From Saccostrea echinata (lineage: Eukaryota), in the NCBI RefSeq assembly GCF_033153115.1, contig NW_026889805.1:1178001-1242000 (forward strand): a stretch of DNA of 64,000 bases, given 5' to 3'. The notes beneath the pieces are model-generated. The model was not told the DNA's origin. It made no database searches and was given only the letters and a program-made list of their open reading frames with translations. The position numbers were made by a program, and so were the translations under genes. Positions 28,101-60,375 of the stretch are shown piece after piece; positions within the stretch are counted from its first letter, which is position 1; each line of letters opens with the position of its first letter.

Positions 28101-28667
28101 AAGCTTTTCAATACTAAACTGATTTTTGTGTGGGTGTAACCGGTCGACAAAATGCTTACTCTTCCTGGGCATCTGGGGTTTCCAAGGATCCATATTCTTG
28201 CCCTAATTTACGACTCATTATGAATTTTATCACTGTTGGTTATTTTTACGTTTAGGTAATCTTCTTGGGCACAAATTTCAGACCCCAGGGAGGGGGGCTT
28301 CGATGTTTGTGAGCCCGATAATTATTAAGAGGGCATATAACTTGATGTGGATCTCGGATACAAAAGAAAGTCTTTTAACCCCTTTCATTGTCGCGTGTAT
28401 ATAATGACTTCTATTGTAAAATATAAACTACTTAAGTGTATTCTTCTCAGTACTGTTTGTCCAGCTTGCATTTATTGACACAAATTTTTAAGGTGGATAT
28501 TGGATTTCAACGTTAGATCATATTTAGAATACAAATAATGAAAGAACAGAATTTTTAAACAAATGCCATACCCATTTTGTTGTTTTAATAGATCGTTTTG
28601 ATGAGAACTTTAAAACTTAGACATAGATTACATAATAAAAACTGTAAAAAAAAAAATTATCCACAAA

Positions 28668-29903
28668 ATGAAAGACAGGAGAATGATCGGACAACTTTTT
28701 GCTGTTATTATTTTTGATTATCTATGTTTGTTTTCTGAGGCATATACAATAAATGATGAACTGAGTCTACATACAGCGATATTCAATTCCACATACGACC
28801 GAGACGTTCGACCGGGAGCAAGTAGATCCACTCCATTACAAATTATGGTTACGTTTATATTTAAGAGTATAAAGGAGCTTGATGAATCTGTGGGGAAATT
28901 CTCCATTACTGGAGCTCTAGGTGTTTTCTGGGTAGACCATCGATTGTCATGGAATCCAACTGATTACGGAGGGGACTTGAATACAACCGTAGTCCCGCAA
29001 AAGAAAATCTGGATACCCTTCCTTGTCAATACAATGGACTTTGACACATTAAAACCGATTGGGCACAACGAACTCAATTTAAGAGTCGCAAATGATGGAA
29101 AAGTCACTTGGATAACGCCTAACATGTTTGAGAGTACTTGCGATGCTGATATGTCTTTTTACCCATTCGATTCACAGATTTGTACCTTGAGGTTCTATAT
29201 ACAAGGATTCACGCTCTCTGAAATCGTATTCGCGATTCCTAAGTCTTCCATGGACATGAATGAATATAGTGAAAATGGTATTTGGGAAGTAAAAGAAACT
29301 CAAATTTATATTGCCATAAACTCACAACAAATTCAAGAGGTTCGAATGACAATCAGCATGAAGAGGCGCCCAGTTTATTATATATCTAGTTTGATATTGC
29401 CAGTTATTTTTCTTGCATTTCTCCAGTTGTTTGTTTTTGTAATGCCACCAGAATGTGGTGAACGCGTTGGATTTGTTACCACGGTTCTTCTAGCCATTGC
29501 TGTCTATCTCACCTTAGTTCAAGATAAATTACCAGAAGGTTCTGAACCCAGTGTTTCCTTCCTCAGTTACAAACTATTGGGAGACTTCATGATCGGGGTA
29601 TTCATGACAATAAGTGTGATTGTTGGGCTACGATTTTATCATAGGGAGGAGGAAACGGTAATTCCCGATTACTTGGAGACGTTTCACAGAATGTTGTTTC
29701 GTTGTTGTCGTTGCAAGAGAAAACATAAAGTGAATTTTGACGAGAAGAAAAGCGCAACGGAAGTGACCATTGATTCTGTATCTAAGATTCTTACATGGCG
29801 AGACATCGGAATGGCAATAGATCGTTTCTGTCTTATTCTCTTTGGAATAATTCTGGTTATTTCTAACGGTGTTTATCTCGCAGTAATGTGTTTCTATACT
29901 TAA
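28668..29903 (+). CDS. Divergent nAChR-like Cys-loop subunit, intronless CDS (copy 2, 411 aa)
   Basis: Same architecture as copy 1. Cys-loop CDADMSFYPFDSQIC, identical M2 peptide, aataaa at ~30000. Confidence 0.93.
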   Translation: MKDRRMIGQLFAVIIFDYLCLFSEAYTINDELSLHTAIFNSTYDRDVRPGASRSTPLQIMVTFIFKSIKELDESVGKFSITGALGVFWVDHRLSWNPTDYGGDLNTTVVPQKKIWIPFLVNTMDFDTLKPIGHNELNLRVANDGKVTWITPNMFESTCDADMSFYPFDSQICTLRFYIQGFTLSEIVFAIPKSSMDMNEYSENGIWEVKETQIYIAINSQQIQEVRMTISMKRRPVYYISSLILPVIFLAFLQLFVFVMPPECGERVGFVTTVLLAIAVYLTLVQDKLPEGSEPSVSFLSYKLLGDFMIGVFMTISVIVGLRFYHREEETVIPDYLETFHRMLFRCCRCKRKHKVNFDEKKSATEVTIDSVSKILTWRDIGMAIDRFCLILFGIILVISNGVYLAVMCFYT

Positions 29904-33530: not shown

Positions 33531-34840
33531 ATCTTATTGCTTGAAGAAAAGTAAACAATTAAAGCTAATTACAATAAACATGGATCATATTTATTTATTT
33601 CTGACAAAAGGGAAAAAAAAGCATTTTTAAAATTATGCGTAAATTCATTTTTTTCCTCCTCAAATTATATTCCGGAGACGTAAATAAAAAGCAGATGAGA
33701 ACAATTCTATTTGGCACATCTGAATTTGTTTCAGGACATGATAGTAACTATCAATATGTCTCCCAGTGTATTCAAGAGCATGTTCTTTAACATTTTTTTT
33801 TAAATTAGACAGAGTACTGATAAACAAGTGAATGTATAAAAGTCTCGTTTGGGGTTTTCTATGGTGGATTCTATGATCTTGTTTGCAAATACTATTGGTC
33901 ATTAGGTCGAATCTTGTCTGACGAATAACATACAAATTTTTAAGCCATTATTTACTTACTGAATTTATTATGAAATTCTTCATTTACTCAATCATAAAAA
34001 GGAGCACACGGATGGTGTGATCCGTCGACAGGGGATGCTAAATACCTTTATGGCACTTGCTCTCACCTCCGATATTTTTAGAGATCCAAGTTTGCTCTGC
34101 TTACAATCGTTTAAGAAATGAGAATTATTTTTGTTTGTTATGATCATATTTCATGGACTGAATAGATATTATCGATGAGGAACTCTCGTATCTTTCAAAG
34201 AAAATTTATTAAGAAGATGAATGATCTGAAAATGACCAACAAAAGATGCAAAAATGTCAGTGCCTCATTTTTGATTAAAAAAGAAGAAGCATATATTCTA
34301 TGATTCAAAAATTTGCTTTTTATTAATCGTACGGTAAGAGTGTTGAAAAAGGAAAGTTTTTTATTGCTGTTAGTTTCGGAATATTTGTTTGATTTAATTA
34401 AAATATGCTATCAGCGCTAAAGGCAGAATGCCCTCCTGAGACACTATCGGATTATTGTATTATTTGTCTCTAATCAATTCTATGAGTAAGTTGTAAAGGG
34501 AGTTGTTTGACATCATTAACGTCGAATTTCCGCTGTCGGGCTTTGTTTAATGAAGGAGCTTTAAATTTAGTTATCATATGGAATATTAAAGATAATTTTC
34601 AAGCTCTTCCCCAAACCTGGATACAATTTTAGTATTAGTTCGAAATGCTTTAATAGTTTGTCTTAGCTATAATTTACTCAGAATTAAGAAGAGCATTTAG
34701 CGATCTGTTTCTTTTAGTCAGAATAAATATTGGTTGGAATCTGAATGTCTAATATTCAGATATTTATTGTTCACTTTTCAGAACGACCTCTCCCGATCTT
34801 CATTGGTTTCTTCCTAATGATTACTTATGTAATAAGAGAT

Positions 34841-36070
34841 ATGAGTGCAACTAGAATATTTTTGAGATTGGCATATCTGGTGTGTATTTCATCTTTGACT
34901 AAGACGTATACATTAAAAGATGAGCTGAACCTTCATGCAGCAATATTCAATTCCACCTACGACACGAATGTTAGACCGGGAGAAAATAGGTCGATTCCAT
35001 TACAAATAAATGTTACTTTTTACTTCAAGAGTATTAAAGAGGTTGATGAATCTATTAGTAAATTCTCCATAACGGGAGCCCTTGGTGTGATGTGGAAAGA
35101 CGACCGTTTGACTTGGGAGCCTTCTTACTTCGGAGGGGACCTGTATATCACAATTGTCCCACAGAAGAAGATTTGGATGCCTTTCCTTGTCAATATTAAT
35201 GCATATAACGAATTGAAAGAGATTGGTTCCAGCAACATGGATCTAAGGATAGAAAGCAATGGAGGAATAACTTGGGTTACGCCCAACATTTTTGAGAGTA
35301 CTTGTGACGCCGATATGTCCTACTATCCATTCGATTCTCAGACTTGTACATTACGATTCTATATACCAGGGTTCATGCCCTCTGAGATCGCATTTACGAT
35401 TCCTGAGAATAGCATAAACATGAATGAATACAGTAAGAATGGTCTGTGGGATGTGACAAATACTAGGATGTATACAGCCCTAAACATTCTTCAGTTCCAG
35501 GAGGTACGAATGTCCGTCACAATGAAAAGACGACCGGTTTATTACATATCAAGTTTGATATTACCAGTTGCTTTTCTCTCTTTTCTTCAGTTGTTTGTAT
35601 TCTTGATGCCACCTGATTGTGGTGAACGTGTTGGTTTTGTTACCACGGTCCTTCTAGCCATTGCTGTCTATCTCACCTTAGTACAAGATAAATTACCAGA
35701 AGGTTCTGAACCCAGTGTTTCATACCTCAGCTATAAGCTACTCGGGGACTTTATGATCGGAGTGTTCATGGAAATTGGCGTTATTATTGGGCTACGATTC
35801 TATTATAGAGAACATGAACAAAGAATTCCAGACTACTTAAAAACGCTTCATAGAATTTCCTTTTGTGACCTCTCCTGTTGTTACTTAAAAAAGCACAAAG
35901 TGGCTACTGATGAAAAGGAAACCATGGAAGAGATAAAGAACCCTGTGTCTGAGCCACTTACCTGGCTGGATATCGGAAAGGCGACAGATCGCCTCTGTCT
36001 TTTTATGTTTGGATTCGGTCTGATGAATTGTAACATAGTGTACCTGATTGTCATTGTGTCGTTCTATTAG
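34841..36070 (+). CDS. Divergent nAChR-like Cys-loop subunit, intronless CDS (copy 3, ~409 aa)
   Basis: Start placed at MSATRIFL by alignment with copies 1 and 2; the ORF is open from 34745 and there is a probable 5'UTR acceptor ttttcag at ~34780. Cys-loop CDADMSYYPFDSQTC and M1-M4 are intact. Confidence 0.9.
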   Translation: MSATRIFLRLAYLVCISSLTKTYTLKDELNLHAAIFNSTYDTNVRPGENRSIPLQINVTFYFKSIKEVDESISKFSITGALGVMWKDDRLTWEPSYFGGDLYITIVPQKKIWMPFLVNINAYNELKEIGSSNMDLRIESNGGITWVTPNIFESTCDADMSYYPFDSQTCTLRFYIPGFMPSEIAFTIPENSINMNEYSKNGLWDVTNTRMYTALNILQFQEVRMSVTMKRRPVYYISSLILPVAFLSFLQLFVFLMPPDCGERVGFVTTVLLAIAVYLTLVQDKLPEGSEPSVSYLSYKLLGDFMIGVFMEIGVIIGLRFYYREHEQRIPDYLKTLHRISFCDLSCCYLKKHKVATDEKETMEEIKNPVSEPLTWLDIGKATDRLCLFMFGFGLMNCNIVYLIVIVSFY

Positions 36071-38369: not shown

Positions 38370-39285
38370 CATCAATGAAATATGTGGAGATAACGAACAG
38401 TATTCAAGCTCAAAAGTTAAACAATACAAATTTTGGAGCAGAGCAAATACGGATGTCTAAAACATTAGAGGTGGGATCAGGTGCCATGGAGGAATAAGCA
38501 TCTCCTGTGGACCCGTCACACCCACCGTGTGCTCCTTGTCATGATTGGGAAATAACGGTAAAATCCGTCGACAATTCAGTGTGTAAATAATGGCCTAACA
38601 ATTAGTTTGAAAAAGTCAGTCAGCATTTGATTTAATGATAGATTGTATTTGCCGACAAGGTCAATGTATCGACCATAGAACTTACGAAATGATGACTTTA
38701 GACGTGACTGTTGATATTCTTGTTTCATTTACTTGTTTGTCAATAACTTACCTCGTTTTAGAAATTGTTCCTATACGTAGAGAGCATGCTCTTGTGTATC
38801 GAATCAACTGAGAGATATAAACCCCGTATGCAAGTGATAAGGATATATTGCTGCATAAGTAAGAGAAGTTAATGATTGAAAAGTTAAAGTCATCACGTTT
38901 ATCATAAAGCTTTGTTGTTAGATTACCATTAACGTCTTTTTCTAGTAAAATATCCAAATATGAAACAGATGTGACAGACTCTGTGGTATCTTTTATTTCA
39001 AGCTCACCGGGATATATCGTGTCGACAAAAGTATGGAAATAACCATTGTTAAATGACAATACGTCGTCGATATATCTAAATGTTGAGTTGAAGGCCACAG
39101 CAAGTGTTTTCTTCTTTTCACTTCAAAGATTTTAAACAAATTCTGCTTCATATGAATACAAAAAATAGGTCTGCTAATAACGGGGCGAAATTGGTACCCA
39201 TGGGAATTGCGATAGACTGCTGGAAGATCTGGTCACCAAAAACCACATAGATATTGTCAATCAGAAATTCAAGCATCTTTTTAGG
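38370..39285 (-). mobile_element. Penelope-like element 3' half
   Basis: IPMGTNFAPLLAD, FRYIDDVLS, KLYDKRDDFNFSIINF, QLIRYTRACS, and the 3' motif at ~38465-38530. Confidence 0.8.
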
Positions 39286-41029
39286 TTATTTTACATTTGG
39301 TTTTAGACGGCGCATTCAAACTCGCGTATTAGCAAAATCTAAAGTTTAGTTGACTACCAAATAATGTTTAAAAATCGGTCAAATTTATTGGGAAATCTTG
39401 TCTCCTAAGGATCATTTGAGGTCAATTCAATCCAGTTATTAAGCTGTATTATGTATTAAATTCCTATATTTTTTATTTATTTTATTATTTTTCTGTTAAA
39501 TGCATATATGAAATCTAAAAAATATTAAATAATAAAATTTGGTTTATGATGGATAAAAGGAGTCTTGCTTGGGAATTCTATATTTGTATGAAGCAGAAAT
39601 ACAACCTGAGTCGAATGTCTACACGATAAATTCAAAATTAACAACATGACACAAAGAAAACTTGTTGTGTCTTTTAACTCAACATGTAGATATATGGGCG
39701 ACGTTGTATTAACTTTAGTAATTTTAATTCAAATGTCGACTTCATATTGAATTCAAAATATATATTTAAAAAATCAATGATAACTAACCTGTCAGACAAA
39801 ATACATGTAGATGACTTCAGCTTTTCCATTATTAACTTCTCTTATTTATGTAGTAGTATTCCAATATCACCTGCATATGATATTCATGTTCCTGAAACTG
39901 ATTCTATACCAGGAACATGCTCTGAGTACGATCTAAACCTAGGAGAAATACTGACAAATAAGCTGAAATAACAAGGATTTCATACATACAGCTCATTGAT
40001 CGACAGAGAATGATTACTCCTCCTAGGCGCCTGATCCAAGAACGTGAATTTCCAATGGTCAGTGTTTTGTTTGATGAATTTATGAGATTTATCATTGTCC
40101 GTTATCCTTACTTTTTGCACTCTATTTTGTCAAAAATACCTTTGAGAGTTATATCTGTTGAAAATACTTATTTTTAGATAAAGTTTTCATTTTCTTTTTT
40201 TAAGTTAATATATTTTTATTTTCCTTTGTCGACAATTGTATACTGGAAACTGAAGCAAAATAATTATACTCCTCTTGATAAAAAGGTTTAATGACTATAA
40301 GTGATTGACATTGGAATTGCTTTTAAATTTTAACTTGATTTTCATAGATAGACTGTCGTAATTAATGACAATCACTATTTACTTAACAAATGGACTTGGC
40401 AAAGCACTGTTTACAACATTAAAGAAACACGACAAGCAATAAATCGTTTATAGATTCCATTTTTACTATCAATTATACCAAATGCTTGCAATACCTTATG
40501 TAAATAAGGAAAGGGGTCAACGATTATACTTCAATATTAATGTTCCTTTTTCACATCTCTTTCGATTAGGGTAATGTAAATTAAAACATTTGATGAGAAA
40601 TAGTCATCACTTATCACTCTGTACTTAATTTCATGAGTTGAATGAAGGCAATTGTGAATGAATGGATTCTTTTCAACCTTTGTAAATTTATTTTAATAAT
40701 GATTCGTTAGAGAAATTACAAGCGCATAAATTTTCTATACAAACCAAGAATTCTTAGAGTTTTGCATAAGCATTATGGAATTTCCGTATAAACTAAGCAT
40801 TAAGTCATAAATATTCACCCTCGGCCATCCATCTAAAGCAAGTGTAAGCTGATAAGTCCAAGGGCCGTAATTCAATATACATAATGTAGATGGAAAAGCA
40901 AACTTGAAGGTAAACATCTTTTTAAAGAAGCGTTTGATAAATATAATCATAAATATACTAAATTTCTAAGTTCAGAGGTTGTGAAAATAAACTGATTAAA
41001 ACAAAATTTAACTTTTTATTAGAAGCTTA

Positions 41030-41960
41030 TTTTGTATTCATATAAAGCAGAATTATTCAAAAACTTCTACATGAGAAGAAGAAACACTTGCTGTGGCCTT
41101 CAACTCGACATTTCGCTATATCGACGACGTATTTTCTTTTTTTATTCATATGTCGACTCGATATATCTCAGTGAGCTTGATATAAAAGAAACTACAGTGT
41201 CTGACACATCTGTTTCATATTTGGATATTTTACTAGAGAAAGACATTAATGATAACCTAACAACAAACCTTTATGATAAATGTGATGACTTTAACTGTTC
41301 AATCGTTAAATTCCCTTACATAGGTAGCGACATACTTTTAACACCTGCATATGGGTTTTATGTCTTTCAGTTGATTCGATACGCAAGAGCATGCTCTACG
41401 TATGAACAATTTCTAAGACGAGGTAAGCTATTGATAAACAAGTTAATGAAACAAGGATATCAACAGTCTCATTTGAGGTCATCATTTCTCACTGGGATAT
41501 ATCAAGTCGACATAGGAATGAAAGTAACAATTGTTAATTGATAATACGTCGTCGATATACTAGTACCGAAATGTCGAGTTGAAAGCCACAGCAAGTATTT
41601 TCTTCTTCTCATGTAGAAGATTTTAAATAAATTCTGCTTCATATGAATACAAAAAAGATCTGCTAATAAGGGGGCGCAATTGGTTCCCATGGGAATTCCA
41701 ACAGATTGTTGGAAGACCTGATCTCCAAAAACTACATAGATTTTGTCAATCAGAAACTCAAGCATCTTTTTAATATCAACTTCAGTGTACTTGTGTGAAC
41801 AATAAGAGTGTTTTTTAACAAAATAATTCTGTAAATGACAAATGACAAGGTAAGTATATTTACGAGTTCCATTTTTATTGAAAAGGCAGTTTTGATGCTA
41901 CTGATTTCAGTAAAATTTGTGATTTTAAATTTTCCAAAATTTTTTTGAAGTTTTTAAGCC
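41030..41960. mobile_element. Two convergent Penelope-like RT fragments joined at ~41490
   Basis: Plus strand YSYKAE...QLIRYARACSTYEQF; minus strand GIPMGTNCAPLLADLF. The shared segment forms an inverted repeat. Confidence 0.75.
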
Positions 41961-42621: not shown

Positions 42622-45600
42622 TTATTCTGGACTCTGACCCGGCGCCAGATAGAATCGTTTGGTCAGAGTGGACCACGTACACGGCATTTGTTTGTGGCCG
42701 GTATTGGTCTGCCATTGAGGATCGTAAGCCAGGGCCTCCTTCACGTCAATTAGCATGTCCTCCATGTGCTCCTCCAGATAGTTGTCCTTAAAAATCTTTA
42801 TCACGTTGTGGAAAAACCAAGAACCTAAGTGTGGCCTCCGCCAAGCAAAGTAGCCTGAAAGGACAAGTGAACGATTTTAAACTGTGTATTTAAAAAAAAG
42901 TATTGCAAGAATTTTGTTGATTGTAGCTTAATTAAAATTGTAATTTTCTTAACAAATATAAAATTAGGAAAAGCTACTAAAAATTTTATTTAAAAATTAA
43001 TACCATAAAATATTACGTAAGATATTTACGCTATCAACAAATAATGTTGTACTTAAATCAGGCATTATCATTTACTGTAAATCACTTTTTATTTACGAGA
43101 ATTTTTTGTTTGCATTTTTTTCGCGAGATAATCTGTTCAATAACATTTTTTTTCGCAAAATATTTTCATGGACAAAGATTTTTTAAAACAGTTCCAAATT
43201 TCGTCAAAATTTTGTCTTCTATCTTGCCAAAAATTGGCGATCTATAGAACTAGCATATTCACATAAATTTTGAACACCCCAAGAAAATCCATTGTCAAGC
43301 GAAACAGTTTTGTTTAAAGTTCAGTGCAGTCATGAATGTAGAGATAAATTATTTCCAGTTTGGATTTCACTATTGTACTTCATTAAATGAATATATTTAG
43401 GGTTAGGGTTAGAATTAGCACTTACCTTACATAAGCCACTAGGAGATCAGCATCTTTTACCACTTACCGGGTGTAGTAGCATAAGCCATTAGGAGATCAG
43501 CATCTGTTGGTATAGAGATTTTTACCACTTACCTGATGTAGTAGCATAAGCCATTAGGAGATCAGCATCTGTGGCTGTAGAGATCTTTTACCACTTACCT
43601 GATATAGTACAATTAGGAGATCAAAATCTGTGGGCATAGAGATTTTTTACCACCTACCTGGTGTAGTAGCATAAGCCATCAGCAGATCAGCATCTGTTGG
43701 TATAGAGACCTTTCCTACCACTTGATCTATCATGACTTCCTCCTTATCATCAGACAAATCCACTGTACCCTGGGGAGATTTACCACGACAAGCCTGCACG
43801 AAGAAACACTTAGGTTTCCCTACAAAAGTAAGATTAATAGCATTGGGTTCTTTTACTTAAATATGTTGCTGTCTCTTCTTCATGGACCAAAAAAACTACT
43901 TACCTGCAAAATATTTTAATTTGTCGTTTTTAAAATAAGCTACAATTTCGTCGAGTGATATAGTTTTGTCGTCATCTGTAATAATGCCCTCCTGCAATAA
44001 GCATTTATATATCAGTCCTACAGTCTTTGATTCTTTGTATGTATAATTAATTGATCGTATTTCAAGTTAGAGAATACTACTTACATAAAAGAACAGAATA
44101 AGATTTTTGTGCTAATTTTCAATAAATGTTTTGAATTTGTTTGATGTAATCGTAATTGTTAAATGTTAAAAGTTGTCAATAAACATTTGTTGTATAGTTA
44201 ACCTCATTTCCGTGGCTCATTATGAAGACTAGAAGACAGTAATAGTCAGCTGCTTTACGTCTGTTATTGAAAAGACCCGCTGTTTCCTCTAAAAATTCCA
44301 TTAGATCTTGTTTTGTTGTGTCATGTTCTACATGGCATTCAAAGTTCAATGTCTTCTCAAAAAAATTGTGGATGTTTCTAAAATCAGCTTCTGTGCCTGG
44401 ATATAATAAAATGAATATCAAAGAACAACAAATGTCAAAGAGAAACATGGAAGTAAGCAGGTTATAGGTGATTTATTTAAACTGTTATGCCGCCATCATA
44501 TATTTTCATTTTCCTCTAAATGTTGATATTTTGACCGTCATCTAATGTTACAAGATTGATTGTATATATTTAATCACTGTCTCTAGTGCCACTATGTCTT
44601 TATGTGTGTCATTATTTATCACTGTCTATGTTTCCAATATATCTTTGTCTGTGTCATTGTTAATCACTGTCTATGTTTCCAATATATCTTTGTCTGTGTC
44701 ATTATTAATCACTGTCTATGTTTCCACTATGTCTTTATGTGTGTCATTATTAATCACTGTCTATGTTTCCAATATATCTTTGTCTGTGTCATTATTAATC
44801 ACTGTCTATGTTTCCAATATATCTTTGTCTGTGTCATTATTAATCACTGTCTTTGTTTCCACTATGTCTTTATGTGTGTCATTATTAATCACTGTCTATG
44901 TTTCCAATATATCTTTGTCTGTGTCATTATTAGTCCCCTACCGGTGAAACTGGAGGGGACTATAGGTTTCCTCTGAGTCTGTCCGTCCGTCTGTCTGTCT
45001 ATGCTTCCACTATATTGTTGTCTGTGTCATTATTTATCACTTCCTGTATTTCCAATAAGTCTTCCCCTGTGTCCTTATTAATCACAGTCTCTATTGCCAC
45101 TATTTCTTTCTCTGTGTCATTATTTATGATTGTCTCTATTACCACTATCGCATGTCAAACGTTGCAATATTCGAGCTTTTCCATTTGTATTGTATAATTT
45201 TCCATTTATATTCTATAATTTTCCATTTGCATTGTATCATTTCCCATTTGTATTGTATAATGTTTATTTGTATTCTATGATTTTCCATATGTATTCTACA
45301 ATTTCTCATTTGTATTGTATAATTTTTCATTTGTATTGTAAAATTTTTATTTGTATTCTATAATTTTTCATTTGTACTGTATATTTTTTCATTTGTATTG
45401 TATAATTTTTATTTGTATTGTATAATTTTCCATTTGTGTTCTATAATTTTTCATTTGTGTTGTATAATTTTTCATTTGTATTGTATAAATTTTATTTGTA
45501 TTCTATAATTTTCCATTTGTATTGTATAATTTTCCATTTGTATTCTATAATTTTCCATTTGTATTCTATACATTTCCATTTGTATTGTATAATTTTACAG

Positions 45601-47158
45601 TACAAATGGAAAAAACATACAATACAAATGAGAAATTATACAAGTGAAAAATTATACAATACAAATGGAAAATTATACAATACCAATCGAAAATTATAGA
45701 ATACAAATAAAAAGTATAGAATACAAATAAAAAAAATCATATAACACAAAAAAATAATACAATACAAATGGAAAATTATACAATACCAATCGAAAATTAT
45801 AGAATACAAATAAAAAGTATAGAATACAAATGAAAAATTATATAACACAAAAAAAAATAATACAATACAAATGGGAAATGATACAATACAAATGGAAAAT
45901 TATACAATACAAATGGAAAATTATACAATACAAATGGAAAAGATCGAATATTGCAACATTTGACTTGCCATATACCACTATATCATTCTCTGTGTCATTA
46001 TTAATCACTGTCTCTATTGCCACTATATCTTTGTCTGTGTTATTATTTACCACTGTCTCTATTTCTACAATACCTTTCTCTGTGTCATTATTTATCACTG
46101 TCTCTATTTCCAATATGTCTTTCTCTTTGTCATCTTCTCTATGTTTATGTTTGTGTGAAAATAATTCTAAATATAAAATATAACTCTTCTTACCTTCTCT
46201 GCCTTTTGTGAAGTTAAGAATTAGAGCCAGCCCCTTTTGCTTTTCATCTCTCGAATATCTTCTTTTTTCTACATGTCAAAAAGAAAACAAAAACAGTAAT
46301 CTTGCTTTTTTCACATGTTATTATCAGATTAAACAGTCTACGTACTTGATGAATGTGCTCCTTTTTTCTGGGTTGGTCCATCTGATTTTTCAGACAGAGA
46401 TTCTTGGTTATCCTCTTCCAACTTTCGTTTTTTACCATCCAACTCTTAGAAAATTAAGTTATTGAATATGCTAAGTAAAACTTAAAGGCTTCATGGTTAC
46501 AATTTAAATAACTCGTCCACAATAAAGATGANNNNNNNNNNNNNNNNNNNNNNNNNNNNNNNNNNNNNNNNNNNNNNNNNNNNNNNNNNNNNNNNNNNNN
46601 NNNNNNNNNNNNNNNNNNNNNNNNNNNNNNNNNNNNNNNNNNNNNNNNNNNNNNNNNNNNNNNNNNTACTAATGCCACTGCCTATATCAAATACAAATGC
46701 TTTCTTAATATATGTACTTAATAAATTACGTACATGTGCTATGAAAAAAAGTGAATTTTTTTTCTTTAGATGGTTTGAAGTATTATTAGACTGGATTTAC
46801 TTTTATTTTCCTCTGACGACTCTGCTGTCTGGGGTCTGTTTGCTTCTGCGATGATTTTTTTAATCTCCTCTGCTCTTTCATTGATTTCATCAACCCACGT
46901 AACGTCTATACATTCAATTAGTTTAATGAAATCATCATAATGTCCAGGCTTCACATGCCCTTTCTTCTGTAACTTCTCTACAATGTCCAGCACATTGTTG
47001 CAGTTCATTATCGCGTAGGGAGGTAATTTCATTTTTAAGCGATGTTTTACCTTTTCGAAATCATGAGCGTCTACCTTAGAGTTGATGAAATCATGAAGAT
47101 TAGTGATTAGTTTATTGTGGAGATCTCTTGCTTCTTGTGGAATCTTCTCAGGAGCCAT
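42622..47158 (-). CDS. Caspase with N-terminal death-fold (DED-like) prodomain, 7 exons, ~402 aa
   Basis: Exons 47158-46801, 46444-46346, 46268-46194, 44396-44203, 43991-43904, 43819-43658 and 42854-42622. All introns are GT-AG with consistent phases. Motifs GLALILNF..REGT, FIMSHG, KPKCFFVQACRG, IPTDADLLMAYATTPGYFAWR, GSWF, KQMP..STLTKRFY. The gap in intron 1 could hide another exon. Confidence 0.88.
43420..43657 (-). repeat. Tandem partial duplications (~66 bp) of the caspase exon 6 3' end including the splice donor
   Basis: About four copies of ...gatgctgatctcctaatggcttatgctactacaccag|gtaagtggta directly downstream of the true donor. Confidence 0.85.
44570..46130. repeat. 45-bp minisatellite in caspase intron 3, hosting nested insertions
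   Basis: Unit ttaatcactgtctatgtttccaatatatctttgtctgtgtcatta. Interrupted at ~44930-45000 (HINE-like head) and at 45146-45972. Confidence 0.9.
45146..45972. mobile_element. Foldback element built from 21-bp repeats; 6-bp TSD and TATGG-like end (IS3EU-like non-autonomous)
   Basis: TIR tatcgcatgtcaaacgttgcaatattcgagc / gatcgaatattgcaacatttgacttgccata. TSD taccac at 45140-45145 and 45973-45978. Arms of (ttccatttgtattgtataatt)n invert at ~45598. Confidence 0.75.
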
Positions 47159-47789
47159 TTTGGTTTAGTTTGTTATTTAACGGTGCATGCTTCTATAAAA
47201 TTATGCGTTCAGTCTGCTATTTAAACTTCCTGTTTGCATAAGTGGGTCATGTCAATGATCTAATGGAGGCGCCCAGAGGAGATTAAATCTAAAAAAATTC
47301 ATGATTTAAGACAATCTTTTAAAAGAAAATTTCTATTTGACTTCTGCTGAGAAATCTTTGGATCATAATTTTTTTTAAATCTATATGCAAATGAAACAAA
47401 AGATTAAAAGGATACCAAGTTATATTTGAAGCAGTCGTTGTCTATTATAGAAATTATATTATACGTAATACAATTACCTTTTTTTATTTATAAAAAGTAA
47501 ATAAATAAATAAAATGTAGCACCGCTCTGATACAAATTCGACAATTCATGTTACTTGTTGCATTCTATAGTAGATAATACTAATAGAGGAAGCCTCTATT
47601 TAGTCTTATAAAGTAATTATAAAATCTTTGATTAATGTTTTACATTATCGTTTTTCTATGATTCATTATTTCTATTCCAAAAGATAACTGCCAACGGTTC
47701 AAGCAATGTACACATTTAGTTTAAAGTTTAAACTTTATTTTCGTTCAAACACTTCTACAGGAGAAGGACATTCTTATTTTTGCTTTTAA

Positions 47790-49200: not shown

Positions 49201-49830
49201 GATGATAACCAGCATTGCAGCACGTGATAATTAGCATCAGCGTTGAAGCCGCCCATAGTAGAATTGTCGTATACTATAACTTTGATTTTAAAAACTATAA
49301 CACACCAAAAATATATAGACCCGTTTTACTGAAATTTGCAATTTTACTATTTTCGTATCCTGATATACATTCTTCAGAGAAACTAGAATGAAAGAATTTG
49401 TTTCAATCCCTCTCCCTCCTCTGACCTTTCTCCATCTTTCTGATACATCCTGGAGTAATAGCAACCAAATAAGGACACAAACACATAATTCAGAGGTCAC
49501 AAATAATAATTAAAAAAACCCAAACAAATTCCACATTTATTTACTTTAATAAATAATCTACTGGTGACAAATAAGATATTTTTAAATATGAAGATGAATT
49601 AAAGAATATTGATACTGCATTGTCTTTAAGGAGCAGAATCTAAACAAAACAGAAAAAAAATGTTATTTTTTTTTCTAAAATCTCCATACAATGGGTCTTG
49701 TAATCAGTCATATAAAGTAAATAAATAAATGTCAAAAATGATATCCTTCTGCAAGAAATATTTTTGCGATATTATTCGACTTTTAGTTCAAGCAGTTACC
49801 CAGATAAATAAAAATTAATAGGTGACTTCC

Positions 49831-50376
49831 TCAGCCGTAACGACGCCTCCCGTAACCATAGCGACGATATCTACCGTAACCGTAGCGACCTCGACCACCA
49901 TAACCAAAGCGACCACGACCACCGTAACCATAGCCACGACCGTAACCATAGCCACCATAACCACGATATCCTAGTGATCTACCATACCATCCTCGCCGGC
50001 CTTCAAAATAAGATATTTAGATATTATTTCCTGTTTCCATTATTTACATCATGGATGAGATGACTACTAATGCCATCATTTCATAATTATGGTCTTTGGC
50101 ATTAGACATACTACAGTTTGAGCTGGAAAATTTCACAATTAAAAATTGAATTAGAATAATGTATGTGTATATTTTTTTCTGCTTAAAATTATTTTACAAT
50201 GATAACTTAAAATTTTTAAAAGAAAATTCAAGTATATTATGTTGTCATGTTAAAATCCGATTCTACAAGCCGTATAAAAACTTTGATCATTCATACTCAC
50301 CCTCTGATGGTAAAAACAAACTGCACAATATCACAACAAAGAAAAGAAGGGGTAGAATTGCCCGGCTGAATTTCAT
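49831..50376 (-). CDS. Small secreted Gly/Arg/Tyr-rich peptide (81 aa, 2 exons)
   Basis: Exon 1 (50376-50301) encodes MKFSRAILPLLFFVVILCSLFLPSE with donor gtgagt. Exon 2 (50000-49831) encodes G-RRGWYGRSLGYRGYGGYGYGRGYGYGGRGRFGYGGRGRYGYGRYRRYGYGRRRYG*. Phase-1 intron; TATAAA about 50 nt upstream of the ATG. Confidence 0.88.
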
Positions 50377-50424
50377 ACTTTATTAATTTTGCGCTACAGT
50401 CCGAGACAAAGTCTTGTGGATCAA

Positions 50425-50430
50425 TTTATA
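50425..50430 (-). promoter_or_regulatory. Putative TATA box of the Gly/Arg/Tyr peptide gene
   Basis: TATAAA on the minus strand about 50 nt upstream of the ATG. Confidence 0.45.
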
Positions 50431-51131
50431 TTCAATAATGCGACACATTAAGGTAACAGTGCGATATAAGGCGCCAGTAATGGACTTCTAAAACATCTAC
50501 ACAACTGACCAAAACAACCAACCGCAGATGTATATGTTTTGTAAACAAACTTATTGTGGGCGTGTCAATATAAAGGTTTAGTAGTGTCATGATGATTAAG
50601 TGACCAAAACATTTCTATAGATATGACATTTATTAATGTATGAAATGACCGCTAATGTACATTTGCAGTTCACCAATTATAATCTTTAGAACTTCATTCT
50701 TATTCTATATTATTATAAATGTCTACTAATGATCCAGCTCGCATAAAGCGGAATGACATTTTTGAATTTGAAAAATTTCAAAACAATGTTCATGTATATA
50801 AACATGTACTTGTAGAACACAAGATTGCAGTACTTGAAGATATTTGGCTGAATTGTTTGCTATGTGTTTATGTGTATTGAACTAGCTAAGCTTTAATCCC
50901 TATACAATTCTTTCACTTGAATGACAAAATTGAGCTCTGCATTTTACAAAATGGAGATCAAATCATGAAGACAATGCTTTTGATTTATTAGTCACTTTGT
51001 CTGCATTTCTTTTTCTGCAACTTAAACCTTAATTTCTCATAGCTTTGGAAGTAAACGATTTGGTAAAGATGCTCGGTCAGATATTTGAACCTTATTGCTA
51101 GAGACGGTCAGATATTTGAACCTTATTGCTA

Positions 51132-53779: not shown

Positions 53780-54914
53780 GATTCCTAAAGAAAGAAGTTA
53801 GAAACATTTTACTTACTTGTAGTCCACTTTTTTCCTTAAAAATAGGAAGAGTACCAAAAGAACAAAATAGAAGAATTTAAGTGTACACTGTACTAGTACG
53901 GCTGTATATGCTATTCGTAAAATGTCCTTCTTTGTGTCCACGTGATAAATTACTTTCTAATACTCTATATAATTTTCTTTTTTCTGATCTTGTAGAAATT
54001 AATTTAAAGAATTTTTATATTATGTTTAAAATGTTTAACGATGGTAATTTTGTAAAATCTATAAAAAGAATCAACGATGGGATAAATAAAATATTTTACC
54101 TTCTCTTGTGAGAGACTGCGGCTTAAAGCAAAAACTACAGACAACGTTAGAGACTATATATTGAGTGTAACCATAGCAACATTTGAATTAAATAGATTTA
54201 CGCTCTTAATCACTTAATACAATTTAGAAATATGACAGGACATTATTTCAAACCTTAAATCCGAAATAACAACAAACGAACTTCTGAGGGTATCCATATT
54301 AATAATAATTAATTAATTAAGAAAACCGACACTTCTAGAAACATGGAACAAATTGTTTAAGAATAGAAAGTTAAAATGTCACACAATTCTCGTAAAAATA
54401 TGACACAAACATTCTTATGACATGAAGAAATTAGCTAATTATAACAAAGGAAAATTAATGTCCCGTGAAAATGTCGGGAACCAGAAATAATACAATATGT
54501 CTTCTTCAGCTTAGGACTTTTGACTGTGTTACTCGTAACATCGGTAGGTCACTCTGTGACTTTGACCAATAATTGCTCACTCGATTTTAATACTTAAAAT
54601 AATTTTTTGAAAGAAAGGAAATGCGTAATATTTCAATAGCCAACTTTGCAAGAAGTTTTTCTTGAACACCCTTGGAACATATACTTTGAATCAATGGATT
54701 TGAGTTGTATCACTAATTTTGGGTATGTCCAGGGCCACATGCACTAATGGTCAAAGCATTATTGTCATCGAGTTAAAAAACATGTACATATATCTTAATT
54801 AGAATTAAAGTCAAAGTCGAATGTTATATTTAGAAACATCTCTTTTTTTTAAAGAGACTATCAATCATGTAAAATGTATTGGATCAGACAATGATCATCT
54901 TAATTGGCAACTAA

Positions 54915-56050
54915 TACATCTCCCGTGTCATTTTTATAGATTGGTACATCTCCCGTGTTATTGTTATAGGTTATGTGATATATCTCCCGTGTTATAGTTA
55001 TAGGTTATGTGATATATCTCCCGTATTATAGTTATAGGCTATGTGATATATCTCCCGTGTTATTGTTATAGGTTATGTGATATATCTCCCGTGTTATAGT
55101 TATAGGTTATGTGATATATCTCCCGTGTTATAGTTATAGGTTATGTGATATATCTCCCGTGTTATAGTTATAGGTTATGTGATATATCTCCCGTATTATA
55201 GTTATAGGTTATGTGATATATCTCCCGTGTTATTGTTATAGGTTATGTGATATATCTCCCGTGTTATAGTTATAGGTTATGTGATATATCTCCCGTGTTA
55301 TTGTTATAGGTTATGTGATATATCTCCCGTGTTATAGTTATAGGCTATGTGATATATCTCCCGTGTTATTGTTATAGGTTATGTGATATATCTTACGTGT
55401 TATAGTTATAGGTTATGTGATACATCTCCCGTGTTATAGTTATAGATCATGTGATATATCTCCCGTGTTATAGTTATAAGCTATGTGATATATCTCACGT
55501 GTTATAGTTATAGGCATATCCCCCGTGTTATTGTTATAGGTTATGTGTTATATCTCCCGTGTTATTTCTATAGGATATGTGATATATTCCCCGTGTTATT
55601 TCTATAGGTTATGTGATATATTCCCCGTGTTATTTCTATAGGTTATGTGATATATCTATAGGTTATGTGATATATCTCCCTTGTTATAGTTATAGGATAT
55701 GTGATATATCCCCCATGTTTAGTTATAGATTATGTGATATATCTCCCGTGTTATAGTTATAGGCTATGTGATATATCTCCAATGTTATAGTTATAGGCTA
55801 TGTGATATATCTCCCATGTTATAGTTATAGGCTATGTGATATATCTCCCGTGTTATTGTTATAGGTTATGTGATATATCTCCCGTGTTATAGTTATAGGT
55901 TTTGTGATATATCTCCCGTGTTATTGTTATAGGTTATGTGATATATCTCCCGTGTTATAGTTATAGGTTATGTGATATATCTCTTGGTTATATTTATAGG
56001 CTATGAGATATATCTCCCGTATTATTGTTATAGGCTATGTGATATATACA
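54915..56050. repeat. Minisatellite, 34-bp unit (atatctcccgtgttatagttataggttatgtgat)
   Basis: About 33 tandem copies read directly from the sequence. Confidence 0.95.
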
Positions 56051-58398: not shown

Positions 58399-60375
58399 CT
58401 AATAAGCTTGTTGTATAGAAGTTAACAAGACAGCATGCTCATCCACCCACTGTATAAATGCGGGAGATCGCTGTTTGATTATTTTCATCAGGGTGACACA
58501 GTCACTCTCTGCACTATGGAGATTGACTGGATCCTGTCCAAAGGATCTTCTGTAAATGTCAACAAGTTTGTATGATACCCTCGGGGGAAATCGGGACACT
58601 GGAGAGGCCCCTGGTTTGAATCCTGAGCATGCGTTTTCAGTGGTGGATCTAAAGAGTGAACGACAGGCCATTCCATTTGGGACAGCTCTTTTTCCTGCCT
58701 CTACATTATATGTTTCATTTCTTCCACTGACTGGAGTATTTAGCTGAAATGCTGCAGTAGAGCGCACCAGGCCCGTCATAGGGGTCAGGCACTGCTCTTT
58801 TTGAGGGGTGAAACAGTGTTCTTTCATGGGGGTAAGGCACTGGTCTTTCTGTGGGTTGGACACAGTAGTGAAGGTTTGACCACTGGTGGAGGGAGTCTCA
58901 GGGGTACACAGACCCTCACAATTAGCTAACACACTGACAGTTTGTTCTTTAGGAGTCACACAGTCTGAAGTTTTTAACAGACATATAGGAGTCTCACTAT
59001 TCAGTTTGTTGCGAGATTCTGATTGTGACTGTTCTATGTTCTCCACGGCTTGTAGGAAATCATCATCAGGCAGACTCCCTTGAGAGGCAGGAATGGTATG
59101 CTGACTGTGAACATTTTCCTTGTCTTCTAGAGGATTATGGTTTTCTTCTGAGTCTGACATTTCTACGTCTTTGTCTTCACTATCATCTTCCTCCTCATCA
59201 TCATCATCAAAACTCAGTCTCTTTTTCACTGACTCAATGTCACATGTATTTCTTTTACTTATGACATCTGCTGACATTTTCAAGCTTGATCCTATTGGCT
59301 TATGTCCAATCAGATCTATTGAATCATCATTTTTTTCATCATCTTTTTTTCCTGCGGAGTCAAATAATCTTTTTCGTATAGATTTGGCCTCAATGGGGAC
59401 TCTGTCAAAGTCTGCGTCACATTTGCGTTTTTTCTGTCTCACTCGACCTTTGACATCTATAACCTGCTCAGGCACCTCGGGAATGTTCTGTCCTACAGGT
59501 GTTGCGGTTGAAGCTCCATTGTTGGTATTTTGTGCTGGATCTGATAATACGTCTGCTGCTTCTGTATCAAGGGCACGAAGTGCTTCCAGTGAATCAGCAC
59601 AGTAAATCTCACCTGGCAAAGTACGAGCAATTCTTTTGAGTTCAGCATTCAGAATCTTGAAGTCATATCCATTTCCATTGTGAGCCAGCAGACATATAGG
59701 CTGAGGAAGTCGAGAAACAAAATGTGAAATAGAGGTGATGGTGTCATCATCAAATGGTGACTGAGCCTCCAACGCATCGTTGTATAGACCTGTTGGAAAC
59801 AGAACATGTAACTGTAAATATAAAGATACAACACATTCCTTGTTATGAGGGCTTTTATTTACATCTATTGCAAATATTGTAAATGAATATATGTTCAGCA
59901 TTTAACAAGCTGTGGAAAGGAAAAGTCAGAAAAATATTATTTTCTTAAACACCCTATACATGTAGCTATGTAAATCCAAGCATTAAAACTGAATCTATGA
60001 CATATCACATGGAATTATGAATGGTAGAAATTTAGTCTAAATTTTAATAAACCAAGATTCTTGAATGTTTCTGTCTACACTTGTTCAGGAGAATATCTTT
60101 TCTTTGTATAAAATTGCCTATACATGCAGCAATTCTATCCTGTGTAACATACCAGTAACAATGCTTGCTGTAGGATCAATCATCTTTTTGGGGTTGATAC
60201 ACATCACCAGCTTGTTACAAACACGGGGCAACCCTACGGGGGTCAAGAGTTCCTCTCTCTGGACAGACAACAGACATAACTCCGTCACCCTCGGCCTGGC
60301 ACCTGGGTTTATAAGTCCTGTGCACTCCAGGTCTAAAATCACTAATGTGGCGATTTTCTCCCTCGGTAACACCAT
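58399..60375 (-). CDS. TREX1/TREX2-like DEDDh 3'-5' exonuclease (~537 aa, 2 coding exons)
   Basis: Exons 60375-60153 and 59789-58399 (phase 1, GT-AG). ExoI LDLECTGL, PRVTELCL, PRVCNKL, ExoII LLAHNGNGYDF, CADSL, SYKL..IY, ExoIII HSAESDC. Confidence 0.88.

Follow-up and report, generated by a model that had tools for sequence, protein, structure and literature searches.

Shematrins contain Gly repeats and end in a short basic run with Tyr, and the mammalian high-Gly/Tyr KAP19 proteins are matrix proteins of hair keratin that lack a signal peptide. KRMP-3 of the pearl oyster is described as a small, basic protein (101 aa, pI 9.5-9.8) with a signal peptide, a Lys-rich region following it and a 38-residue Gly/Tyr region that binds chitin in vitro; the protein is located in the insoluble prism matrix, and quinone tanning has been proposed for Gly/Tyr regions (PMC4498902). 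GY-rich proteins and tyrosinases are reported to be abundant in the prism matrix of P. fucata (PMC4660305), and the tyrosinases of C. gigas have expanded (PMC4897951, PMC10225672), with co-option in the mantle (PMC4897951). In mussels, Mfp-3 is a Gly-rich protein of 5-7 kDa, about a quarter of its residues being cationic and a fifth to a quarter Tyr or DOPA (PMC5132118), and the myticalins, which are restricted to Mytiloida, are gill-specific, often amidated peptides with a pI above 11 and more than 10% Arg (PMC5577615). Little is known about the proteins of the cement and periostracum of oysters, and two studies describe the constituents of the larval oyster adhesive as trypsin-resistant and unidentified (PMC6337334, PMC6193008).

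In this paper we describe a gene for a predicted secreted peptide of Gly, Arg and Tyr, found on the minus strand of a window of Saccostrea echinata DNA, that is, the whole 64-kb stretch that was analysed. The gene is real and spliced, with three exons (Table 1). Its coding exons, 50376-50301 (76 nt) and 50000-49831 (170 nt), join into an 81-aa open frame, and in-frame stops lie just 5' of the start codon, the ATG at 50376. Intron 1 is of phase 1 and GT..AG type, with a GTGAGT donor and its AG acceptor at 50001. If the intron is retained, a stop lying five codons before this acceptor shuts the frame, so that a track of open reading frames misses the gene. A short upstream open reading frame of 21 codons (50448-50383, minus strand) is in frame with the main ATG and ends 6 nt before it.

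Table 1. Features of the peptide gene, with positions counted from the first letter of the window
Feature	Position	Strand	Remarks
5' leader	50377..50505	-	transcript contigs reach 50490 (X1) and 50505 (X4); extent of contig cover, not a mapped start site
exon 1, coding part	50301..50376	-	predicted signal peptide, residues 1-25 and first base of Gly26; matches XP_061164187.1 residues 1-26
intron 1	50001..50300	-	300 nt; joint in X1, X4 and X6 (X6 with 3 letters between)
exon 2	49800..50000	-	remainder of the Gly26 codon; entire mature peptide; stop codon at 49833-49831; then 31 nt of 3'UTR
predicted mature peptide	49834..49998	-	55 aa, G22 R15 Y14, GYG-rich, 11-residue Arg/Tyr/Gly tail
intron 2	49640..49799	-	GT..AG intron of 160 nt within the 3'UTR; X1 and X5 contain the joint 49639/49800
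exon 3, non-coding	49523..49639	-	X1 contig ends at 49523; AATAAA at 49541-49536

The evidence for splicing comes from contigs of four of the six matching public runs (X1, X4, X5 and X6), which belong to two studies and none of which is recorded as RNA. Exactly the length of intron 1 is missing from the X1 and X4 contigs, at the joint of 50301 to 50000 that the initial annotation had proposed. The X6 contig also skips intron 1, the three other letters at its joint making silent changes in a Gly and an Arg codon, and the X5 contig ends at 49990 without reaching the joint, which is thus supported in three of the four runs. Two of the four contain the joint of the second intron, 31 nt past the stop; the gene consequently has three exons, and not the two first proposed. 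The X4 contig breaks off at this position (49800), where a loose end of 19 letters in X6 looks like the beginning of exon 3. By the 50-55-nt rule for junctions downstream of a stop codon, the 3'UTR junction would be too near the stop for nonsense-mediated decay. The contigs look mRNA-derived, because two GT..AG introns are skipped, a bin lying wholly within intron 1 has zero depth in all four runs, and the X1 contig ends just past the AATAAA, 13 nt beyond it; a processed DNA copy is formally possible as their source instead. The contigs carry no information on tissue or level, and their depth was not taken as a rank of expression.

A search with the mature peptide returned a single protein of 81 aa, RefSeq XP_061164187.1 of S. 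echinata, which is named 'keratin-associated protein 19-2-like' and has the same sequence as the spliced precursor; its orthologue in Magallana gigas is the uncharacterised UniProt entry K1RHC4 (78 aa, 76% identity to the precursor). The gene had been called hidden, which is correct for the track of open reading frames, but it was already in RefSeq and UniRef; XP_061164187.1 and K1RHC4 are both automatic entries, and the gene is annotated with no study of it located. A search of main texts, which took in neither subscription papers nor the majority of supplements, found no paper that names either accession or three of the motifs. The keratin name is misleading and reflects the Gly/Tyr composition only: identity as a keratin-associated protein was rejected in view of the N-terminal hydrophobic segment of signal type, and no profile matches at the cut-off. 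A Pfam search with the precursor returned no family at its cut-off, the sole match being Keratin_2_head (E 2.6, 8.5 bits against a cut-off of 28.2). A sequence search of the PDB gave just a signal-peptide-level match (E 0.27), and the ESM Atlas gave no usable match, the model having a pLDDT of 0.44 at which structure hits are meaningless; the mature peptide is predicted to be disordered.

A phmmer search with the precursor against 1.84 billion representatives produced only two hits, both of oyster type, K1RHC4 and a second entry, P0005. The latter differs from K1RHC4 by a single residue and by 33 residues inserted behind residue 26, and is an unspliced read-through of the K1RHC4 gene, with the intron at the same position as intron 1 of S. 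echinata. A second sequence search with the precursor gave these two relatives again; two further matches in it, P0006 and P0007 (E 8.6 and 9.5, with cluster members P0008 and P0009), were discarded as compositional. Identical residues between the two species number 18 of 26 for the signal peptide and 41 of 55 for the mature peptide, the latter figure being inflated by the three-letter alphabet, and the last 11 residues all agree. By these comparisons the peptide is conserved between two oyster genera and belongs to a small family that is apparently oyster-restricted, short spliced low-complexity genes being poorly annotated elsewhere. The unfiltered tblastn search that had been suggested as a check found no paralogue in the 64-kb window, within which the gene is single-copy.

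The first 26 residues of the precursor have a basic start, a hydrophobic core (9-residue hydropathy peak 3.6) and the end S-E-G. On the hydropathy and the -3/-1 rule for signal peptide cleavage, a signal peptide is predicted, with cleavage after S-E-G (Gly26). The remaining residues 27-81 form a mature peptide of 55 aa with 22 Gly (40%), 15 Arg (27%), 14 Tyr (25%) and one each of Trp, Ser, Leu and Phe; Asp, Glu and Cys are absent, the last residue is Gly, and the predicted mass, pI and net charge are 6.43 kDa, 11.0 and about +15. A recount thus returned every figure of composition given at the outset. Among 7,769 stop-free windows of 55 residues in six frames, the runner-up contains 19 Gly, Arg and Tyr residues, against 51 in the mature peptide. 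The coding region registers as a 24-nt tandem repeat, and it uses four Gly, six Arg and two Tyr codons; a chance open reading frame or a DNA microsatellite is ruled out by the four Gly and six Arg codons, the splicing and the conservation.

Gly-Tyr neighbours number 21 against a mean of 11.2 in 20,000 shuffles (P=1e-4), Tyr is flanked by Gly in 13 of 14 cases, and Tyr-Tyr is absent (P=0.012, shuffles). The many adjacent Tyr-Arg pairs emphasized by the initial annotation do not exceed expectation: there are 6, against 7.6 in the same number of shuffles (P for at least as many, 0.84), and it is Gly-Tyr that is enriched instead. The M. gigas orthologue repeats the pattern, with Gly-Tyr at 18 against 8.3 (enriched) and Tyr-Arg at 5 against 6.9 (not enriched). 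A selected Tyr-Arg adjacency was dropped as an idea since the counts lie below the shuffle mean; Tyr-Arg cation-pi contacts need no adjacency in a flexible chain.

The GY/YG pairs give the peptide the Gly/Tyr-rich region by which KRMP proteins are in part defined; the Lys-rich region that follows the signal peptide in that definition is missing, there being no Lys in the mature peptide (PMC4498902). With KRMP-3 it shares a signal peptide, small size, basic character and Gly-Tyr repeats; unlike the KRMP proteins, prismalin-14 and the shematrins, it is much richer in Arg, has no acidic domain and shows no detectable homology to them. Its tail, Arg-Arg-Arg-Tyr-Gly, resembles the shematrin end, with no homology match in phmmer. 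Judged by sequence, the peptide is a member of none of the KRMP, Mfp-3, myticalin or keratin-associated families and would be one more of the secreted low-complexity Gly/Tyr peptides of molluscs. By analogy, its most plausible mode of action is that of the Gly/Tyr regions in shell proteins of pearl oysters.

The reading that we prefer, tentatively and with a little less than even confidence, is that this secreted, unstructured Gly/Tyr/Arg peptide would be a cross-linked structural part of the organic matrix that the mantle deposits, whether in the periostracum, the organic layers of the shell or the cementing layer. It is preferred because the enriched GYG pattern is common to the peptide and to the Gly/Tyr region of KRMP-3, and this pattern makes shell-matrix regions of KRMP/prismalin type a likelier model than a DOPA primer. 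In such a scheme the mantle epithelium would secrete the peptide, and the GYG repeats would bind chitin, as does the Gly/Tyr region of KRMP-3. The 15 Arg would bind acidic matrix proteins or polyanions, standing in for the basic region of KRMP in binding acidic partners, and the salt of seawater would screen the +15 charge and let Tyr and Arg condense the peptide. Tyrosinase or peroxidase might then turn Tyr into DOPA-quinone or dityrosine, giving an insoluble network. The matrix reading is supported by the apparently constrained mature part, the lack of an anionic propiece and the neighbouring gene for a low-complexity, predicted secreted protein. Against it are an Arg content of 27%, which is far above that of an ordinary Gly/Tyr region and suits an antimicrobial peptide just as well, and the lack of detectable homology to any characterised shell protein.

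Shell proteomes give a negative of little weight. In two C. gigas shell-proteome supplements, one holding sequences and low-complexity labels (PMC6231486) and the other peptide lists (PMC5854119), the motifs and accession of the orthologue are absent from the parts covered. In the former, the 7 'Y-rich' and 9 'R-rich' rows contain no small Gly/Arg/Tyr protein, and of the 'G-rich' rows 14 of 30 were covered (PMC6231486). A string search of the accessible supplements of three other papers likewise found no orthologue strings (PMC9456362, PMC5400390, PMC12564202). These blanks are weak negatives because the tryptic peptides of the mature part, the longest of which has 9 residues, are so short and would moreover be cross-linked. 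Tryptic proteomics would systematically under-detect a peptide of this kind, and the database name hides it too. The published sources searched, with genome-wide C. gigas tables outside reach, located no expression site for the peptide or its orthologue.

The high Arg content brings in a possible, though rather unlikely, alternative: the peptide may be a linear cationic Gly-rich antimicrobial peptide belonging to haemocytes or to the mucus of gill or mantle, possibly amidated at the C-terminus, in which Arg would bind anionic microbial surfaces and Tyr and Trp insert, or which would enter cells and bind nucleic acids. The charge of about +15 on 55 residues, the pI of 11, the lack of Cys, the predicted signal peptide and the terminal Gly all agree with it. 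There are analogues among the Gly/Tyr-rich amidated antimicrobial peptides of nematodes and arthropods, namely nematode NLP-29/31 and the caenacins, the spider ctenidins and armadillidin, which are of similar size and bear signal peptides. Linear Arg-rich antimicrobial peptides also occur in bivalves, as the myticalins, oyster molluscidin and CgPrp (PMC5577615), and a gill-specific secreted glycine-rich protein is reported from Mytilisepta (PMC5549309). Amidation at the last Gly is possible from the sequence, but on composition alone about 40% of such peptides would end in Gly.

The closest comparison under this alternative is with the myticalins, which are likewise secreted, Cys-free and Arg-rich, with a pI near 11 and possible amidation (PMC5577615). 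They differ from the oyster peptide in three respects. A myticalin has an anionic C-terminal propiece following a dibasic site, and the oyster peptide has no acidic residue; in the myticalin gene, intron 1 lies in the 5'UTR and one exon encodes both signal and mature peptide, whereas intron 1 of the oyster gene separates these two and its intron 2 lies in the 3'UTR; and the mature part of myticalins is hypervariable, that of the oyster peptide conserved (PMC5577615). The oyster gene is also present in one copy only in the 64-kb window.

Compared with the window, exon 2 has no differences in 200 nt in either X1 or X4, and none in X5. Exon 1 and the leader together have 7 in 191 (X1) and 10 in 206 (X4), which departs from exon 2 with Fisher P values of 0.006 and 0.002, and these differences include V15G, A6T and F3I in the signal peptide. 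In X4 the 0 of 200 in exon 2 stands against 32 of 1,902 in the neighbouring gene (P 0.067, not significant). In X6, which carries a third organism label, exon 2 has 17 differences in 198 nt (about 9%), against 194 in 1,269 for the neighbouring gene (P 0.012); an insertion of 6 nt in exon 2 keeps the frame, and the four coding changes seen (two of the 17 from the difference table and two at the joint) are all silent, a tally that does not amount to an estimate of dN/dS. In contrast to the antimicrobial peptides of mussels, which diversify, the mature part appears to be under constraint. A mature exon that is invariant and a signal exon that is variable are the reverse of the myticalin pattern; the invariant mature exon and the missing propiece argue mildly against an antimicrobial role. 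The invariance of exon 2 extends to silent sites and may reflect haplotype sharing instead of selection.

The likeness to Mfp-3 raised by the initial annotation extends to size, charge and Tyr content, and stops short of homology and of Asn and Pro. On it rests an unlikely alternative, that the peptide is a convergent counterpart of Mfp-3, an interfacial primer of the cement of larval or juvenile oysters, in which Tyr would be converted to DOPA, Arg would displace cations and water from the surface, and the peptide would coacervate on meeting seawater. At 6.4 kDa it is within the range of Mfp-3 and is likewise Gly-rich; cationic residues amount to 27% against about 26% in Mfp-3f, and Tyr to 25% against 20% for Dopa and Tyr together (PMC5132118). 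Tyrosinases and a peroxidase of C. gigas are reported as pediveliger-specific (PMC6337334), the larval adhesive footprint resists trypsin and its true proteins were probably missed (PMC6193008), and homologues of the peptide were found solely in cementing oysters. Against a primer, Pfam and phmmer detect no homology to Mfp-3, Tyr-Arg adjacency is not enriched, and Asn, Pro and Lys are absent from the mature peptide, Asn making up 10-18% of Mfp-3 (PMC5132118). Asn numbers 0 of 55 in S. echinata and 2 of 52 in M. gigas. Mfp-3 has 30-35 variants, and exon 2 of the oyster peptide shows no sign of such polymorphism, being invariant in the X1, X4 and X5 contigs. In its fullest form the idea becomes more doubtful still: oysters would have arrived independently at an Mfp-3 of their own, a three-letter peptide of Gly, Arg and DOPA that only cementing oysters possess and that condenses in seawater, primes rock for permanent cement and escapes every tryptic proteome through fragments of at most 9 residues and cross-linking.

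Other secreted roles seem very unlikely. The precursor could be cut at Arg-Arg into short amidated peptides, or the peptide could form part of the coat or mucus of gametes or of the gut. RR and RRR sites are present, including a conserved Gly-Arg-Arg-Arg near the C-terminus, as potential convertase and amidation sites; Arg pairs are to be expected at 27% Arg, and the resulting pieces would form no repeated conserved motif. Typical neuropeptide precursors have acidic spacers, and none occurs here.

The shortlist first drawn up, of an adhesive primer, a shell cross-linking peptide or an antimicrobial peptide, named the right candidates, with the Gly-Tyr enrichment now favouring shell matrix over the DOPA primer. 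As a matrix peptide it would be a modest addition to a known class; as a cement primer or a salt-tolerant antimicrobial peptide it would be of interest to biomaterials and aquaculture. With its near-pure alphabet of Gly, Arg and Tyr, it is short and cheap to synthesise.

About 1.5 kb upstream of the region where the peptide transcript starts, on the same strand, a gene at 53779-51974 (minus) encodes a predicted secreted protein of 602 aa that is low in complexity and rich in Gly, Ser, Tyr, Lys, Pro and Asn, and that has no Pfam family. The only relative found is the uncharacterised LOC134246930 of S. cucullata (71% identical), and the exact sequence is absent from the protein collection searched. 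Contigs of X4, X5 and X6 cover the gene and those of X1 do not. It probably has a 5'UTR exon ending near 54100; a loose end of an X4 contig resembles 54119-54102, which suggests a spliced leader. The protein is a candidate matrix protein, and the adjacency of two orphan secreted Tyr-rich genes is suggestive of a matrix locus. Downstream of the 602-aa gene, numerous unrelated contigs from each of the four runs match the short segment 51681-51856, which is probably the end of a dispersed repeat.

Elsewhere in the window, three uninterrupted frames resembling nicotinic acetylcholine receptors are found on the plus strand (11774-13024, 28614-29903 and 34745-36070), the first with Pfam ligand-binding (LBD) and membrane domains and the second and third sharing 82% and 69% identity with it; a fourth copy, short and broken, lies at 22775-22980. 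Decayed retroelement-like fragments with similar translations occur at 2244-3061, 38748-39122 and 41023-41897, and one of the four pieces scanned has a weak RVT_1 match (E 0.0036). A 132-codon frame (46766-47164, minus) adjoining an assembly gap at 46532-46666 has a weak death-effector-domain match below the cut-off (E 0.0015). A 500-codon frame (58399-59901, minus) has no Pfam match, whole or as an N-terminal piece, and contains a long acidic disordered insert, around which are motifs that we take to be those of a TREX-type DEDDh exonuclease. Two 21-bp satellite arrays in inverted orientation (45146-45972) are flanked by a 45-bp repeat (44570-45148 and 45975-46133), giving a large imperfect palindrome-like block, and minisatellite arrays of about 1.1 kb each occupy 54948-56047 (34 bp) and 8424-9503 (28 bp).
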